Shown: in pieces, positions 48,148-59,124 of the stretch | Layout of the letters: the number at the start of each line of letters is the position of its first letter | Position numbering within the stretch: position 1 is the stretch's first letter | IMG/VR virus record: IMGVR_UViG_3300010885_011343 | Span: 29,879-93,878 of that record | DNA length: 64,000 nt | Direction: 5' to 3' (one strand) | Source of the DNA: a virus | Position numbers and translations under genes: made by a program | The notes under the pieces: model-generated | Databases searched by the model: none | The model's input: only the letters and a program-made list of their open reading frames with translations | What the model was told of the DNA's origin: nothing

Positions 48148-48501
48148 TTACTTAACAAGATGTTGTGCCAACACCATTAAACTTAACCAAACCCAAATAG
48201 TATTAAAGCCAACTAGTGTGGGCAACAATTTTTTGTTACTAGCCCATATTAAAGTTAAACTGGTTGCCAGCGTTAAAAAGTACAACCACCAAATTTGAAT
48301 ACCAAATACCAATCCTGGTATAATAATTATGGCTTTAGCAACCCAGCTGGCAAATTCTACTATGTTGTAGTTGGTCCAGTATTCGCGAGTAAACCACATA
48401 CTGTAGCACTCACGAATCTTTGACAATCCACTATGACTATAGACACCACCAATTAAAACTAGCCACACCAAGGTGGCTATAATAATTTGATCACTAGTCA
48501 T
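48148..48501 (-). CDS. Small membrane protein
   Basis: Several hydrophobic segments. Confidence 0.6.
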   Translation of the reverse strand: MTSDQIIIATLVWLVLIGGVYSHSGLSKIRECYSMWFTREYWTNYNIVEFASWVAKAIIIIPGLVFGIQIWWLYFLTLATSLTLIWASNKKLLPTLVGFNTIWVWLSLMVLAQHLVK

Positions 48502-49349
48502 TAAGTGCCCCAGGCGTTCTTGAACAGCGGCACCTGCAATCTGTCGCTGTAACGATAGCCTCGCTTCATTGCAAGCTCTGCGACGCGGCGATTATTAAGA
48601 GAGTATACGCTTTCAACTCCACCAACAGGCATAAGATACACAGGACCTTTAAAGCCTGCACGACGATATTCTTGTACAGCACGATCTGCATCAATAACAT
48701 CCTCCTGTGTGGCTACTACTAATTTTAAGTAAGCATAACCAACGTCTTCATAATCGCAAACAATCTCTGGACAAATGGCCTCTTCCCACTTCTCACCACT
48801 GCAAGGCAGTTTAGCACTGACACTGAAAGTGATTTCTCTACCTGGTTGCTCAGCAAGCCAAATACGCAAGTAGTTTTTAAAATTACCGCTTAATTTTTGA
48901 GTGCCATTGGTTTCAAATGTAATTTCAGTTAATGGTGTCATACAGGGCTGGTCTAGTAGATCAGGATAAGCACGTTGCCAACCCAGTAATGGCTCTCCGC
49001 CTGTGATAACAAGATGTTCTTTTTTCCACTCTCCGTATGGAAGCGTCTTAACAATATCTTTGGCAAGACCTTCTACAGCAACCATTGGGCTAAGATCCTT
49101 AAACATTGGATCCCAGCTGGCGTAACTATCACATCCAGTTTTAACCAACGGAAGTTCGTTATAGTTGTTAAACATATGAACAACCTGGGAGATTTCTTCT
49201 CGCTCTGTGCTCAACTCACCTCTGGGCATACCAAATCCACCACAGGTAAAGTTGCAACCAAATGTGCGTAAGAACACACTAGGAACACCCATATAGCGTC
49301 CTTCACCTTGAATGCTGTAGAACAGCTCTGCTACTTTGAGTTTACTCAT
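48501..49349 (-). CDS. queE: 7-carboxy-7-deazaguanine synthase (radical SAM)
   Basis: ELFYSIQGEG, FLRTFGCNFTC...CDS, ITGGEPL, ETNGT and RLQVPLF. Confidence 0.92.
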   Translation of the reverse strand: MSKLKVAELFYSIQGEGRYMGVPSVFLRTFGCNFTCGGFGMPRGELSTEREEISQVVHMFNNYNELPLVKTGCDSYASWDPMFKDLSPMVAVEGLAKDIVKTLPYGEWKKEHLVITGGEPLLGWQRAYPDLLDQPCMTPLTEITFETNGTQKLSGNFKNYLRIWLAEQPGREITFSVSAKLPCSGEKWEEAICPEIVCDYEDVGYAYLKLVVATQEDVIDADRAVQEYRRAGFKGPVYLMPVGGVESVYSLNNRRVAELAMKRGYRYSDRLQVPLFKNAWGT

Positions 49350-49633
49350 ACTTGAATTTCGCTTTCAAAAATATTAGACCATTGTTTAAGTTTTGCAATT
49401 TTATTATTCGATGCAGTGAGTACTTCATCTTTGTCAACTAGGTTATGGTCAATACACAGGTTGATCATTGCCTGTAAGTCGCCTAGTTCTTCTGCCAAGT
49501 GTTGTCTGTTAGTCAACGGTTTACCTGGCTTAAAGTTGTCTAGGCCAAATCGACTAATTTTACTAACAGCAACAATTACCTCTGCACACTCTTCTTGTGT
49601 AATGTCAAGGATTTCTTTTTCTTTTGAATTCAT
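49346..49633 (-). CDS. MazG-like NTP pyrophosphohydrolase
   Basis: EECAEVI...EELGDL (ExxE...ExxD). Confidence 0.75.
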   Translation of the reverse strand: MNSKEKEILDITQEECAEVIVAVSKISRFGLDNFKPGKPLTNRQHLAEELGDLQAMINLCIDHNLVDKDEVLTASNNKIAKLKQWSNIFESEIQV

Positions 49634-49634
49634 A

Positions 49635-49829
49635 TTAGCTTCCGCAATCTATACGCCAGGGGCAAGTTGATAACATTTGTGTACTACAGTCATCCTCACC
49701 AAAACAACTAGGTTGGTGTGTACGCTTTAATCTAATTACTGTATGTATCCGGCGCCGTTCTTCGCTATCACCAAACCCTGTATTACAGAGCTTGGCTTCT
49801 TCGTTTAATAGATCTTGTAGATTAGGCAA
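49635..49829 (-). CDS. Small Cys-containing hypothetical protein
   Basis: CFGEDDCS...CPWRIDC. Confidence 0.45.
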   Translation of the reverse strand: MPNLQDLLNEEAKLCNTGFGDSEERRRIHTVIRLKRTHQPSCFGEDDCSTQMLSTCPWRIDCGS

Positions 49830-50376
49830 ACAAGTCCTCGTTCCATTCGCGATGGCCTTCGCGGAAAGCCATATTGGACTGTGTCTCTCTGACTTCTACA
49901 CGATAGCACCACAAACGCTTGGCTTCACCCTCGCCCCACATCTCGGGAATGTAAACTCCATTGACATACTTGTAGAGCATATCACTAAGACCTTCACAAC
50001 CTAGTTTAGGCAGTACTACAATCTTGGCCATATTCTTTTCTTGTAGCAGTTGGAATGTGGGCATATCAGGATCATCTGCGGCTACAATCAGCGTGTGATC
50101 AAATTGATCTTCTAGGATCTTTTTAAGTTCTTTTAGGCCACCGTAGTCCGCGGCCCAGTTACGAACGTCTAGGTCGTTGGTACCAAAGTAAAACTTCATT
50201 GAGAAGCTGTACCCGTGAATTAGGTTGCAATGACTGTCAGCTCGCCACTGACGATACGCACAAGGAAAAGCATCGTGATACTCTTTGGTGCTGGTATATT
50301 TGTAACTGACTGGACCCACGTAAGGAAGGTTGTCTTCTAAGTGTCTGATTAAATCAGCTGTTGATGATTTTGCCAT
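49822..50376 (-). CDS. queD: 6-carboxy-5,6,7,8-tetrahydropterin synthase
   Basis: SHCNLIHGY, DYGGLK...FDH, GCE and VEVRET. Confidence 0.88.
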   Translation of the reverse strand: MAKSSTADLIRHLEDNLPYVGPVSYKYTSTKEYHDAFPCAYRQWRADSHCNLIHGYSFSMKFYFGTNDLDVRNWAADYGGLKELKKILEDQFDHTLIVAADDPDMPTFQLLQEKNMAKIVVLPKLGCEGLSDMLYKYVNGVYIPEMWGEGEAKRLWCYRVEVRETQSNMAFREGHREWNEDLFA

Positions 50377-50382
50377 TATTTT

Positions 50383-50449
50383 CTCCTATGTTAATTATAG
50401 CATAGGCAGCAGAATTTGTATAGCGGGTTGATGCTCGGAGGCCGCTTTG
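50383..50449 (-). ncRNA. Candidate preQ1-I-like riboswitch in the queD leader
   Basis: AGCGG-CCUCCGAGCAUCAAC-CCGCU-AUACAAA-UUCUGCU, followed by a CCUAUG/CAUAGG hairpin over the SD. Confidence 0.45.
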
Positions 50450-50457
50450 ACATCTAT

Positions 50458-50793
50458 TTAGTATTGTTTTTCAAGTTGATCCAAATGTTCTTGAAAATTA
50501 TGCTGTTCAATATCATCTAAAAATTTAATCAAGAACATACTGGCCGCACTGGCATCAGCGCCATCAAAGTGCAACCTGGTTCCACCGGTCCCGTCCTGTC
50601 TATGATAACAGAACTTGCCCTTACCATAACGAACACGATGTTTTACGTGTTCGCGTCCTCGATTATCCCAGACCGTGTCTTTGAACACTTCTCCGCCAAC
50701 TAGCCTATACCATTCAATCATTTCTTCAGTTAGACTGCGGACTTCAATGTGTATTGGGTAGTGTACTTTACAGCCTGGCGGAAGTGGAATCAT
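50458..50793 (-). CDS. Hypothetical protein
   Basis: Start MIPLPPGC with an ATGA overlap. Confidence 0.55.
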   Translation of the reverse strand: MIPLPPGCKVHYPIHIEVRSLTEEMIEWYRLVGGEVFKDTVWDNRGREHVKHRVRYGKGKFCYHRQDGTGGTRLHFDGADASAASMFLIKFLDDIEQHNFQEHLDQLEKQY

Positions 50794-51251
50794 TTTACGG
50801 CTCTCTCGGTAAGGTATTGTTCGTTTTGAATCCATTTGTTTTTAACTAGGAATCCCCATTCGCGTTGTTGAGGACCAGGCATAAACAATGTCCAACATTC
50901 TATACTAGGATCTAATTCAATGCGATGGTAACTAGTTGCTTCGCATATTCTAAAACTGCCCGGACCTCTCCATTTTGCAATCTCTCCAATCTTTAATCCT
51001 TGATCATTAAATTGCGGAATCCATTCCCAATATCCGCCTTTTAGGATAATAGTAGCATAAGGCCAAGGATGGTCGTGGACATCATCGGGATCTGATTTAA
51101 GAAACCTATGAAGAAATATGTTAAATGGAAACCAAGTTCTATCTTTAAGAAAGAGATAATACCGCTCAAGGTAAGGCTCATTGTTTATCCTATCCATTAC
51201 AATACGTTTACGACCCAGGCTGTCAAGCCAATTTAAGAATGCTTTTTTCAT
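50790..51251 (-). CDS. Cupin-fold protein
   Basis: HDHPW...GGYWE...YHRI metal-binding pattern. Confidence 0.7.
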   Translation of the reverse strand: MKKAFLNWLDSLGRKRIVMDRINNEPYLERYYLFLKDRTWFPFNIFLHRFLKSDPDDVHDHPWPYATIILKGGYWEWIPQFNDQGLKIGEIAKWRGPGSFRICEATSYHRIELDPSIECWTLFMPGPQQREWGFLVKNKWIQNEQYLTERAVK

Positions 51252-51523
51252 TCAGTACTCTTTAGTAAATGAAAGCTAATTAGTTTTCCTAGTTCTCGAT
51301 CAAAGTTCTTCTTATTATCAGGAATGACATAGTAACTAGGACGATGATGATTCTCTGTTTTAATGGCAATAATGTATCCACCGGTAGCTTTAGTAACACC
51401 AATGGTGTAATTGGGTGCTATATCATTGCCGCCTAATGAAATAGTGTCAATGCTCATAGGTCCGAGACTGTACGAGCCCGATGAACCAGTGATACCAATT
51501 GTGCTCATATTGATCATACTCAT
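51248..51523 (-). CDS. Hypothetical protein
   Basis: 91-aa ORF. Confidence 0.5.
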   Translation of the reverse strand: MSMINMSTIGITGSSGSYSLGPMSIDTISLGGNDIAPNYTIGVTKATGGYIIAIKTENHHRPSYYVIPDNKKNFDRELGKLISFHLLKSTE

Positions 51524-51524
51524 A

Positions 51525-52217
51525 TTAATCCTTTTTGTCGCCGGTTAGGTTTAACAGACTTAGGAAAATGTTAATAAAGTCCAGGTACAGTGTAATTGCA
51601 CCCATAATCTCTGCACCATCGTCTGCATTACTGTCGTATAACATTTCGCGTATTTGCTGAGTGTCATAGGCGGTCAATCCCAAGAAGATAACAATGGCCA
51701 CAGCACTGATCACCATTTGCATTACGCTACTGCCAATAAAGATGTTAATAACGCTGGCAATGATGATGGCAACGAGCCCAATGAACATAAACTTTCCAAG
51801 GCTGTCAAGGCTACGTTTAGTAAAGTAGCCATAGACGCTCATAATACCAAATAGGATACCGGCACCCATAAATGCACTAACAATACTGCCCATTGTGTAT
51901 AGTGCAAAGATTGTGGCAAAACTTAACCCCATCAATCCTGCAAATGCGTGTAAGGTTAACACCTTGCCACCTTTAGAAATTCCCGAACTAAGCAAGTACG
52001 GAACAGCAAAAATAAACGCCAGTGGTGCAAGAATCACAATCCATTTTGTCCAGCCGGTAAAGAATAATTGCAGTAGAGCAGGACTGGTGCCCACTAGGTA
52101 ACTAACAATCATACTGTTAATTACAGCGGCCGCCATATGTCCGTATACACGGCCCATTGCTTGATTGATCTGATCTGCAGATCGGTATGTGATAGTGTCA
52201 ATTGTATCTGTAAACAT
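51525..52217 (-). CDS. Bax inhibitor-1/YccA family membrane protein
   Basis: About seven hydrophobic segments, with AYDTQQIR and LYLDFINIF. Confidence 0.9.
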   Translation of the reverse strand: MFTDTIDTITYRSADQINQAMGRVYGHMAAAVINSMIVSYLVGTSPALLQLFFTGWTKWIVILAPLAFIFAVPYLLSSGISKGGKVLTLHAFAGLMGLSFATIFALYTMGSIVSAFMGAGILFGIMSVYGYFTKRSLDSLGKFMFIGLVAIIIASVINIFIGSSVMQMVISAVAIVIFLGLTAYDTQQIREMLYDSNADDGAEIMGAITLYLDFINIFLSLLNLTGDKKD

Positions 52218-57597: not shown

Positions 57598-59124
57598 TTA
57601 TACCTCCAGTTGGTTAAGTTTATCTTCGTCTAACACAGGCTCCTCGTAGGCCACGTATTCAAACAATGCGTTAAACATAGTATTGGCATTTACAGTTTTC
57701 TTACCTTTAAAGCCACGAGTGCCTACAATTTCCATCCAATACTTACTATAGTGTTCAATGATAGCCTCTGAACTGGCACGGTCTGGTGCGGCAAAGATAG
57801 CTTCTACAATGTCTTTGAACTTTTCTCCGCCCGGCCCACTGTAGCGCATCATTGCAGGGTACTCGCCTAGGTCATATTGACGATTGGCACGTTGTACTGC
57901 TTCTAGGTGTGTCCAAACATTATGACCCATTAACAGTGCATAACTAAAACTATCCCAACTAGTCTTGCCTTCCTTGCCAATCTTATTTAGGTCGCCGGGC
58001 TTGTAGATACAAATATCTTTAAGGGTCAATTTCTTACTAATTGGGCTTTCATCAAACACAGGCCAATGACCTTCTGCAATGGTAGCAGGACCATAAGGTC
58101 TAGTGTCGGTGCTAAACTTCTTATCGTCGATGCTGGGCGCCATACGATAAGACCACTTCTCGTTGTGTGTTAAATCTATTTGGTGATAGACTTGCCCGTT
58201 CGCAGTCGCCAAAAACGGACTAGCACAATCAAAGCTAATAGTAAAAGAAGGATTGACATATTTTCTCACTGCTCGTTGAATATCGGTTAGTAGCACAGCC
58301 CACTCTAATTTGCTAGTACCCAAGAAGTGCATCCAATCGTGCAGGCCCTCTTGTAGCAAGTTGTCGTAACGTAGTGCTACCAAGCGTTTTAATACCAAGT
58401 GTACGTCACACATATTTTGGCCACCCATTGCCCAACCATCAAAGTGTGTATCTGGGTACACAGTTGGGTCGCAGAACTCTTTCATCTCTTGATACCAAGC
58501 CTCTGCACTGCCGTGGTTGTCACCTTGCAGTACATTTAGGAACTTGGCTCCGCCATTGTTCTTGCCCTTGCGGTTAGCCATAAAGTAATTGTTATTAAAC
58601 TTAGTAGCATCCACAGCTTCTTCTAGTGTGGTAATCTGGCAAGCCACACTAGCTTTCTTATCGTGGATGACCCAGGTTGGAATATCTAGAATCATTCCAT
58701 AGTCTGCAATACCATCTAACCATTTAAGCACAGCATCACGTTTCTTTTGTGCCTTGGGACAACCTGAATTGGCCTTCCAGTCGCCTTCCCACAGGCCCTT
58801 GGCAATTTGGAACCCACCAGAGTCGCCCAGTATAAAAGTTCCTGGCTCTCGATTACGAACCATATCTTCACTCCAGTCTTGTTTAGCAAGATCAAGATTG
58901 GCGTGTCCCCCGGAGTACAAACTCCATTTGTATGGAAATAATCCTTTAGAACTATTAAGCCAATTGAGTTGTTCCATATCAGTGATACCCTGCGGTAACC
59001 TAGTTGGGTCGACATAATTCTCGTTGCGTTGTTTGCCTATGAATGTAGCATAAAATCCGCTAATAGCAGGCAGGAACACAGCATAGTCTGATTGTTTGGC
59101 TGTTAGATTGTCTTGTTCAGTCAT
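57598..59124 (-). CDS. dpdA: TGT-fold guanine transglycosylase, DpdA-like
   Basis: DSGGFQ, LDIP, NVLQG, GWAMGG, HFLG and SFDCAS. Lacks the bacterial tRNA-TGT zinc motif and clusters with folE/queD/queE and replication genes. Confidence 0.8.
   Translation of the reverse strand: MTEQDNLTAKQSDYAVFLPAISGFYATFIGKQRNENYVDPTRLPQGITDMEQLNWLNSSKGLFPYKWSLYSGGHANLDLAKQDWSEDMVRNREPGTFILGDSGGFQIAKGLWEGDWKANSGCPKAQKKRDAVLKWLDGIADYGMILDIPTWVIHDKKASVACQITTLEEAVDATKFNNNYFMANRKGKNNGGAKFLNVLQGDNHGSAEAWYQEMKEFCDPTVYPDTHFDGWAMGGQNMCDVHLVLKRLVALRYDNLLQEGLHDWMHFLGTSKLEWAVLLTDIQRAVRKYVNPSFTISFDCASPFLATANGQVYHQIDLTHNEKWSYRMAPSIDDKKFSTDTRPYGPATIAEGHWPVFDESPISKKLTLKDICIYKPGDLNKIGKEGKTSWDSFSYALLMGHNVWTHLEAVQRANRQYDLGEYPAMMRYSGPGGEKFKDIVEAIFAAPDRASSEAIIEHYSKYWMEIVGTRGFKGKKTVNANTMFNALFEYVAYEEPVLDEDKLNQLEV

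Follow-up and report, generated by a model that had tools for sequence, protein, structure and literature searches.

Comparison of related viral leaders indicates that the sequence upstream of a queD-like phage gene carries a real, conserved and structured cis-acting RNA, predicted to fold as an H-type pseudoknot. The gene lies in a 64,000-nt stretch of DNA (the window) that makes up the right-hand end of a 93.9-kb IMG/VR virus record, whose completeness is 27% (CheckV). The DNA polymerase of the phage shares 51% identity with its counterpart in Sinorhizobium phage Phosso and 46% with the one in Agrobacterium phage Atu_ph07, and the phage is therefore placed among the T4-related jumbo phages. 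The leader itself is an 81-nt gap on the − strand between a 125-aa ORF (50458-50835) and the queD-like gene (49822-50376), which likely forms an operon with the genes that follow it. The QueE-like gene of this group matched NCBIfam QueE models at 1e-10 to 6e-13, every one of these matches being below the model cut-off, and folE is located 1.9 kb upstream. The genes of the locus are as follows, in window coordinates:

49822-50376, − strand: PTPS/QueD-like gene, 184 aa, predicted to be regulated by the leader (Pfam PTPS 3.7e-14; PHROG 2389 'QueD-like' 2e-35)
48501-49829, − strand: likely remainder of the operon after the PTPS/QueD-like gene, three genes
49635-49829, − strand: 64-aa ORF, in the likely operon with the PTPS/QueD-like gene
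49346-49633, − strand: MazG-like gene (Pfam MazG 2.2e-5)
48501-49349, − strand: QueE-like radical SAM gene (PHROG 2076 'QueE-like' 3.3e-49)

The predicted pseudoknot and its conservation

The aptamer is ∼45 nt long and, in the window, consists of the following parts, given in the 5′ to 3′ order of the − strand:

50442-50446, − strand: P1 5′ strand, AGCGG, pairing with 50422-50426
50437-50441, − strand: loop L1, CCUCC; base 1 is variable and C50440 and U50439 are invariant, followed by a linker of variable length
50429-50436, − strand: P2 5′ strand, GAGCA-U-CA, made up of P2b G(A)GCA (50436-50432), the conserved U50431 and P2a CA (50430-50429)
50427-50428, − strand: loop L2, AC; C50427 is invariant and lies directly before the P1 3′ strand
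50422-50426, − strand: P1 3′ strand, CCGCU, pairing with 50442-50446
50412-50421, − strand: loop L3, AUACAAAUUC; consensus N-U-A-N-A-A-A-Y-U-C, A-rich with a fixed UC end
50405-50411, − strand: P2 3′ strand, UG-C-UGCC, made up of P2a UG (50411-50410), the conserved C50409 and P2b UGC(C) (50408-50405)

An initial annotation of the leader had listed a TAAATA motif, the AGCGG/CCGCU stem, a loop ending in C, an A-rich tail, a CCUAUG/CAUAGG hairpin, a Shine-Dalgarno sequence (SD) and an ATG, all of which are indeed located on the − strand as it described. Family-wide, P1 comprises 5 bp, with the top two pairs being G-C and invariant or nearly so, and L1 reads NCU followed by the variable-length linker. 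P2 starts with 2 bp (CA/UG, or CG/CG in a few relatives), continues with a U.C mismatch, represented in the window by U50431 opposite C50409 and conserved on both sides, and ends with 4-7 bp. The helix thus has 7-10 layers overall, with an interruption of only 1x1 or 2x1 nt. L2 has 2-3 nt, the last of which is the invariant C, while the 10 nt of the A-rich L3 end in an invariant UC.

The conserved positions that remain unpaired, which have a pocket-like character, are C7, U8, U16, C20, U27, A28, A30-32, U34, C35 and C38 in the numbering of the motif. Of these, C7 and U8 in L1, and A28, A30, A32, U34 and C35 in L3, are invariant in the first of the two alignments described below (A1), and the C that ends L2 is invariant in both. 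Motif position 6, the first base of L1, varies between C (56 sequences), U (52) and A (27), and is always followed by C-U.

The leader is widespread in viral contigs. The PTPS-like protein, used as a query against these contigs, yielded at least 598 loci; 80 were retained, and the same leader is present in almost all of the 80. A proper complementary P1 was also found in 118 of 120 further viral stretches, which were collected as matches to a 23-nt core pattern in viral contigs. Covariation was assessed on two alignments, A1, a MAFFT alignment of 53 unique sequences, and A2, an independent set of 85 distinct sequences aligned by a covariance model that knew only P1; because of this restriction the alignment of A2 cannot lean towards P2. 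P1 was paired in 100% of cases on A1 and 99.3% on A2, with three to four of the five pairs compensated. On A1 three pairs change on both sides (AU/UA, GC/CG and CG/AU/UA), and the 5′-strand variants AGAGG, ACCGG, AGUGG, UGCGG, UCCGG and AUCGG are all accompanied by compensatory changes. The 5-bp P1 put forward in the initial annotation is therefore borne out. Pairing in P2 was 78.7% on A1, where five of the seven pairs are compensated, and 82.6% on A2, where six of the seven display double changes.

The covariation score for A1 was 0.336, compared with 0.120 in shuffles (none of 500 reached the observed value) and at most 0.08 for slid partners, while A2 scored 0.318, compared with 0.116 in shuffles (again none of 500) and at most 0.09 for slid controls; these statistics derive from related sequences and are not phylogeny-corrected probabilities. 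On A2, paired cells amounted to 89.6% vs 76.5% in shuffles, with double changes at 10 of the 12 pairs. Both helices thus covary, the outcome that the initial annotation had asked of related queD leaders if the element was to stand.

The same P2 emerged from ungapped anchoring of 136 unique sequences, a procedure free of structure-fitted alignment. In this set the X1:Y1 pair is 85% paired, with UA, AU, GC and CG all represented, X3:Y3 is 87% paired (CG in 66 sequences, GC in 42), and the P2a R:Y pair closest to the junction is without exception either A:U (129 sequences) or G:C (7). G.U pairs are frequent in P2, with 19 at one position on A2, which argues that the structure forms on the sense RNA and not on DNA or the antisense strand. 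These data do not support the P2 originally proposed, in which AGCA of the loop pairs with UGCU of the tail. That pairing is the best local duplex in the window sequence alone (−4.3 kcal/mol, RNAduplex) but is paired in 47.5% of cases family-wide, and the supported register is positioned three bases further 3′. The window element scored 55 bits (E 8e-17) against a covariance model built from its relatives. A mutual-information search for further tertiary covariation, directed at position 6, L2 and the variable positions of L3, revealed nothing beyond P1 and P2.

The motif is closely linked to a single type of gene. In each of five phage genomes, including two that are 95-100% complete, the P1-only covariance model returned one match of 52-62 bits, with the next best sites at 15 bits or less. 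A single strong match per phage genome shows that the motif is not a repeated promoter or terminator cassette. Directly 3′ of the motif lies the PTPS-like gene in about 113 of 118 loci; at the few others it follows a short ORF or, at one locus, a second and more canonical QueD paralog. This linkage is kept even in a complete genome in which the motif and the PTPS-like gene are ∼73 kb from QueE and FolE. In contigs of prokaryote genomes, none of the 120 listed matches to the 23-nt core pattern was element-like; they appear to be chance matches, mostly inside genes, and the 100 of them that were scored with the covariance model reached at most 21 bits. BLASTN of the element against cultured phages gave no match, and the motif is absent from the queD leaders of Acidovorax phage ACP17, Dinoroseobacter phage R5C, Xanthomonas phage X1 and Sinorhizobium phage Phosso, the cultured phages with the closest QueD-like proteins. 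No description of the motif was present in Rfam 15 or found in full-text literature searches.

The ribosome-binding region and promoter-like boxes

The remaining features of the leader concern the start of translation and, putatively, of transcription:

50374-50387, − strand: SD AGGAG (50387-50383) and ATG start codon (50376-50374)
50385-50406, − strand: SD-sequestering hairpin, CCUAUG (50406-50401), loop CUAUAAUUAA and CAUAGG (50390-50385)
50394-50402, − strand: TGCTATAAT, an extended −10-like box inside the hairpin, a putative promoter
50455-50460, − strand: promoter-like box TAAATA, located 8 nt ahead of P1 and sharing bases with the TAA stop codon of the 125-aa ORF upstream

The hairpin covers the AGG of the SD and shares C50406 and C50405 with the 3′ strand of P2. 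Its predicted energy in the window is −5.8 kcal/mol, which falls to −2.7 kcal/mol without the first C-G pair and to +0.4 kcal/mol without both (RNAfold). The variants CCUAUA/UAUAGG and CUCUAUU/AAUAGAG preserve the pairing. Related leaders fall into three classes, which differ in what the helix masks and in how far it overlaps P2:

Class 1 (the type found in the window): the 3′ arm of the helix reaches the SD in 90/90 sequences; P2 overlap usually 2-4 nt
Class 2: the 3′ arm reaches the start codon in 39/41; P2 overlap usually 3 nt
Class 3: the 3′ arm reaches the start codon in 23/27; P2 overlap usually 1 nt

An SD-covering hairpin had been recognized at the outset, and the class-1 sequences, in every one of which the outermost pair extends to the SD, confirm it. 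In all lineages the bases that overlap or follow the P2 3′ strand constitute the 5′ arm of the helix masking the SD or the start codon. In the tail variant in which CAUC is replaced by CGUC, the A to G change is compensated by a U to C change in the loop strand, and pairing with the start codon is retained as G.U.

Because P2 takes part of its 3′ strand from the anti-SD or anti-start strand, formation of the pseudoknot is predicted to turn expression ON. This is at odds with the feedback repression (OFF logic) suggested in the initial annotation, and we consider ON the probable direction of the switch, although with clear room for doubt. In class 3, where the overlap is 1 nt, coaxial stacking of P2 and the start-codon helix is conceivable and would make the device OFF or neutral.

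The TAAATA box may act as a promoter, to judge from its distribution. The hexamer is depleted in the window, with 15 and 18 copies on the two strands vs about 40 expected per strand, and the copies on the coding strand sit just upstream of gene starts. In 55 of 66 class-1 relatives TAA(A/G)TA occurs at most 30 nt before P1, mostly at a distance of 5-11 nt, and in most class-2 and class-3 leaders TATA(A/C)T is found 7-8 nt before P1. As these promoter-like boxes end just before P1, the knot would be at the very 5′ end of the mRNA. The box inside the hairpin is also conserved, TGnTAnnnT being kept in 59 of 65 unique class-1 hairpins, which makes a second, aptamer-less transcript plausible and would allow temporal control. 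This suggests that a promoter, and not the RNA, accounts for some of the conservation in the hairpin loop. The initial annotation had regarded a transcription start within the hairpin as grounds for discarding the aptamer. An internal start cannot negate the aptamer, however, because the aptamer covaries and because the class-2 and class-3 leaders have the same knot with no internal −10 box. A scan for terminators and promoters returned only a promoter-like match at the element. A terminator was considered and rejected, there being no U-run after P1.

Relationship to preQ1-I and other riboswitches

The proposal that the element resembles a preQ1-I riboswitch was only partly upheld: the layout, with P1, the invariant C, the A-rich L3 and an H-type knot, is present, whereas membership of the preQ1-I family RF00522 is not supported. 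When the whole window was searched with all Rfam 15 families at gathering thresholds, there was no match on the element. A cmscan of the element and one relative against all of Rfam at E<=10 gave miRNA and snoRNA noise only and no preQ1 family. The search with the Rfam preQ1 model that had been recommended as a check was likewise negative; RF00522 alone, run against five phage genomes (G000-G004) at E<=10, hit scattered sites of 10-17 bits, none at the element, the gathering score of the family being 39 bits.

Class I preQ1 riboswitches are defined by an H-type knot, a G-C pocket floor, a specificity C and an A-rich L3 (PMC11625349). Types I-III are exemplified by B. subtilis queC, T. tengcongensis, C. 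antarcticum and E. coli (reviewed in PMC11625349). The specificity C is located directly before the P1 3′ strand and is preceded by U in type I or by A in types II and III; U6, which follows the 5′ strand of P1, recognizes N9-H of the ligand, while the last L3 adenine (A29/A30) reads its N3/N2 edge (PMC11625349). P2 has about 4 steps and buries SD nucleotides, resulting in an OFF switch (PMC11625349).

The phage motif has much of this plan. It is predicted to be a small H-type pseudoknot in the 5′ leader of a queuosine-pathway gene, and its 5-bp P1 has a conserved G-C closure that would correspond to the pocket floor. An invariant C lies just 5′ of the P1 3′ strand, the base before it being mostly U (106 of 135 sequences) and less often C (16) or A (8), and by analogy with preQ1-I the equivalent residue in the window, C50427, may contact the ligand. 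An A-rich L3 follows P1, and in the phage, too, translational control is predicted to operate through the ribosome-binding region.

In other respects the two RNAs diverge. The base after P1 is variable in the phage motif and is followed by the invariant CU, whereas preQ1-I has U or UU, and L3 ends in UC where preQ1-I has the ligand-reading A. Thus, two of the four class I contacts that recognize preQ1 (the U after P1 and the A at the end of L3) are lost, and the analogy cannot name the ligand. P2 consists of 7-10 layers with a U.C mismatch, compared with about 4 steps, and the SD is outside P2 with the anti-SD inside, so that ON is predicted, in contrast to the OFF switch of preQ1-I. The phage motif, moreover, was found only in uncultured phages. 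The leader displays what is generally expected of a riboswitch, namely a conserved, structured 5′-leader aptamer and an expression platform that share the switching strand. From these sequence comparisons, the phage motif would work like a preQ1-I-type knot yet is not a member of preQ1-I; it is a candidate with a rebuilt pocket and inverted logic.

The U.C mismatch invites a second comparison. In the THF-II and Guanine-II riboswitches a conserved U and C face each other across a helix interruption and read both edges of the guanine-like or pterin ligand (PMC12445698). The phage motif is similar to THF-II (the folE motif) and Guanine-II in having a U.C pair inside P2 and in a gene context of FolE/PTPS chemistry. 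It differs in fold, the other two RNAs being a hairpin with an internal loop, or a three-way junction, and the phage RNA a predicted pseudoknot, and the motif has no Rfam match. We therefore treat the likeness as a resemblance and a lead, in which in-plane entry of the ligand at the U.C pair is putative.

With respect to switching, the closest parallel is the Vibrio vulnificus add adenine riboswitch, a translational ON switch in which the ligand frees the ribosome site. In both the add leader and the phage motif one strand is used twice, as the 3′ side of an aptamer helix and as the 5′ arm of the helix masking the SD or AUG. The aptamer fold and the ligand are different, however, and in the phage motif the shared strand belongs to a pseudoknot helix, P2.

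Proposed mechanism and alternative explanations

On balance, and by a modest degree of confidence, we favour the view that the leader is a small-molecule riboswitch with a preQ1-I-related plan, a different pocket, a guanine-like ligand and P2-driven translational ON control. Such an RNA would act in cis at the 5′ end of the PTPS/QueD-like mRNA, which in the window would also include the MazG-like and QueE-like genes. Ligand binding would stabilize P2, whose 3′ strand would otherwise pair with the SD (CC with GG in the window) or, in other lineages, with the start codon. Knot formation would then melt the sequestering helix and translation would be ON. The ligand would probably be a guanine-faced compound from the route that leads from GTP to 7-deazaguanine or to pterins, the candidates being 7,8-dihydroneopterin triphosphate, CPH4, CDG, preQ0, 7-deazaguanine and guanine.

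The gene content of complete relatives bears on this choice. They encode FolE, one PTPS-like protein and a QueE-like protein, but Pfam QueC and TGT are absent from them; the phage route therefore appears to end with CDG or some derivative, which leaves preQ1 as no obvious product. The early suspicion that the element does not sense preQ1 in the ordinary manner was thus reasonable. An ON switch fits a substrate or demand signal, for example dihydroneopterin triphosphate or guanine, while an OFF switch would fit CPH4, CDG, preQ0 or 7-deazaguanine.

A bolder interpretation, which we advance tentatively and think somewhat doubtful, is that the leader represents a new, phage-only class of riboswitch. 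The P1/L3 scaffold of preQ1-I would be kept, while the pocket would be rebuilt from the CU of L1, the UC at the end of L3 and the U.C dyad in P2. The ligand would not be preQ1 but, for example, dihydroneopterin triphosphate, CPH4, CDG or free guanine, and its binding would switch ON the PTPS-like enzyme, which commits a GTP-derived pterin to 7-deazaguanine synthesis.

Several explanations that dispense with a new ligand pocket, or with a ligand altogether, have to be weighed against the favoured riboswitch. The most conservative is that the leader is an ordinary, divergent preQ1-I riboswitch through which preQ1 or preQ0 represses queD by feedback. The shared plan and landmarks (the 5-bp P1 with its G-C top, the C preceded by U or A, and the A-rich L3) and the location in the leader of a queuosine-type gene are consistent with this explanation. 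Very little likelihood can be given to it, however, as neither RF00522 nor the cmscan of all Rfam matches the element, the base after P1 is variable and not U, and L3 ends in UC and not A. In addition, P2 has 7-10 layers, a conserved U.C mismatch and no SD inside it, the complete relatives are without Pfam QueC and TGT so that the phage route shows no preQ0 or preQ1 step, and the wiring predicts ON. A translational operator recognized by a phage or host protein, for example the PTPS-like enzyme itself or a RegA-type repressor, is the strongest of these competitors but still unlikely. The motif is single-copy and strictly linked to its gene, and its conserved unpaired bases would suit a protein site as well as a pocket. 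T4-type phages use RNA pseudoknots as operators, the gene 32 leader being an example, and the nearest cultured relatives of the phage are T4-related jumbo phages. If a protein were the partner, however, the likeness to the preQ1-I module (G-C floor, specificity C and A-rich L3) before a gene of the same pathway would be a coincidence, and no candidate partner apart from the PTPS-like gene travels with the motif.

The promoter-like boxes raise the further prospect of a ligand-independent timing or stability device, in which the knot does no more than tune folding or protect the 5′ end. Long transcripts from the TAAATA-type box, or produced by read-through, would have the knot together with a closed SD hairpin, whereas those starting from TGnTATAAT would lose the 5′ arm and be freely translated. 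The T4 genes e and soc have such a promoter-in-hairpin design, and this precedent, the TGnTAnnnT box in 59/65 class-1 hairpin loops and the promoter-like boxes just before P1 all speak for a device of this kind. It nevertheless appears improbable, because class-2 and class-3 leaders retain the knot in the absence of an internal −10 box, and because a 5′ cap structure needs neither about a dozen invariant unpaired nucleotides nor a U.C mismatch. Finally, the leader might contain a hairpin that arose by chance, a terminator belonging to the gene upstream or a site that acts at the level of DNA. The single-sequence minimum-free-energy fold is unremarkable (z −1.04) and does not choose P1, and the scan at the element reported the promoter-like match alone. 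Such an origin is nonetheless extremely difficult to reconcile with hundreds of homologous copies that display compensatory changes in two helices, and with G.U pairs that fit the sense RNA only; we regard its probability as negligible.

To our knowledge, few riboswitches are encoded by viruses, and phage DNA hypermodification is not known to be controlled by any. If the phage-only class described above is real, it would be the first known case of a riboswitch in charge of a viral pathway for DNA hypermodification. For an RNA this small, the comparative support, two covarying helices and hundreds of members, is unusually strong. The motif keeps one half of the best-understood small riboswitch pocket and alters the other, and thus provides a natural test of how ligand specificity can be re-tuned. 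Should the ligand prove to be new, the RNA would be a sensor for 7-deazaguanine or pterin intermediates and would help to show how jumbo phages time the making of modified bases. With a length of about 45 nt the aptamer is directly testable by ITC, in-line probing and crystallography.

Elsewhere in the window, a 508-aa protein (57598-59124) gave a weak lead to TGT/DpdA-like clusters, with a language-model score of 0.93; in one related cluster 22% of members carry TGT.

The PTPS/QueD-like protein and its pathway

In the PTPS/QueD-like proteins encoded behind the motif (window 49822-50376, - strand, and homologues in the relatives' loci L001-L341), two of the three canonical His sites for zinc binding are occupied by Tyr, within the stretches FPCAYRQ and (I/L/V)HGY(S/A)(F/L). 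Canonical QueD and PDB 7v0f have His where these proteins have Tyr. Among first ORFs in which the motif could be parsed, HGY is present in 68 of 69, and each complete genome contains a single PTPS gene, the Tyr-bearing one.

Both complete relatives, G001 (383 kb, 100% complete) and G002 (332 kb, 95%), encode FolE, one PTPS-like protein and a QueE-like protein, while neither genome returned a Pfam match for QueC or TGT. The route encoded by these phages seems to end at CDG or an unknown derivative.

Other genes near the cluster

Proteins of the window considered here are:
within 50790-52217, - strand: Bax1-I family membrane protein, 91-aa ORF and cupin, between folE and the queD leader
57598-59124, - strand: 508-aa protein

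The Bax1-I family membrane protein (Pfam, 1e-51), the 91-aa ORF and the cupin, which matches the PHROG 'cysteine dioxygenase' (2e-38), are unusual neighbours in a deazaguanine cluster. The 508-aa protein has no match in Pfam, PHROG, NCBIfam or PADLOC. A language-model look-up tied it to viral clusters (score 0.93), and TGT is found on 22% of the proteins in one of these clusters; a DpdA-like enzyme is only a lead here.

Promoter-like elements

TAAATA is ∼2.5-fold depleted in the window, with 15 and 18 copies on the two strands vs ∼40 expected per strand. Coding-strand copies lie 10-80 nt upstream of gene starts. In its behaviour the hexamer resembles the core of a T4-type late promoter. Promoter-like sites on the - strand include:
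45565, 50460, 53024, 56868, 59133, 60412 and 63178: TAAATA before gene starts
50394-50402: extended -10-like TGnTAnnnT in the loop of the SD hairpin

TGnTAnnnT is retained in the SD-hairpin loop of 59 of the 65 unique sequences of class 1, the leader type of the window, which suggests an internal promoter. Transcripts initiated there would include neither the knot nor the arm that pairs with the SD.

A queD leader lacking the motif and a decayed motif copy

The queD leader of the nearest cultured relative, Sinorhizobium phage Phosso, is 88 nt long (region L350:2400-2500), and the motif was not found in it. An inverted repeat unrelated to the motif, GACAGGACACGACGTTGTCTGTC, lies immediately 5' of the SD in this leader.

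A second, decayed copy of the motif (L230:8-54) is located ∼1 kb upstream of an intact copy (L230:1002-1048), on a stretch that forms one contig with L015. The decayed copy scores 35.6 bits. Its P1 no longer pairs intact, and the UCUGC of the family is replaced by UUCGC; it looks like a leftover of duplication or recombination.
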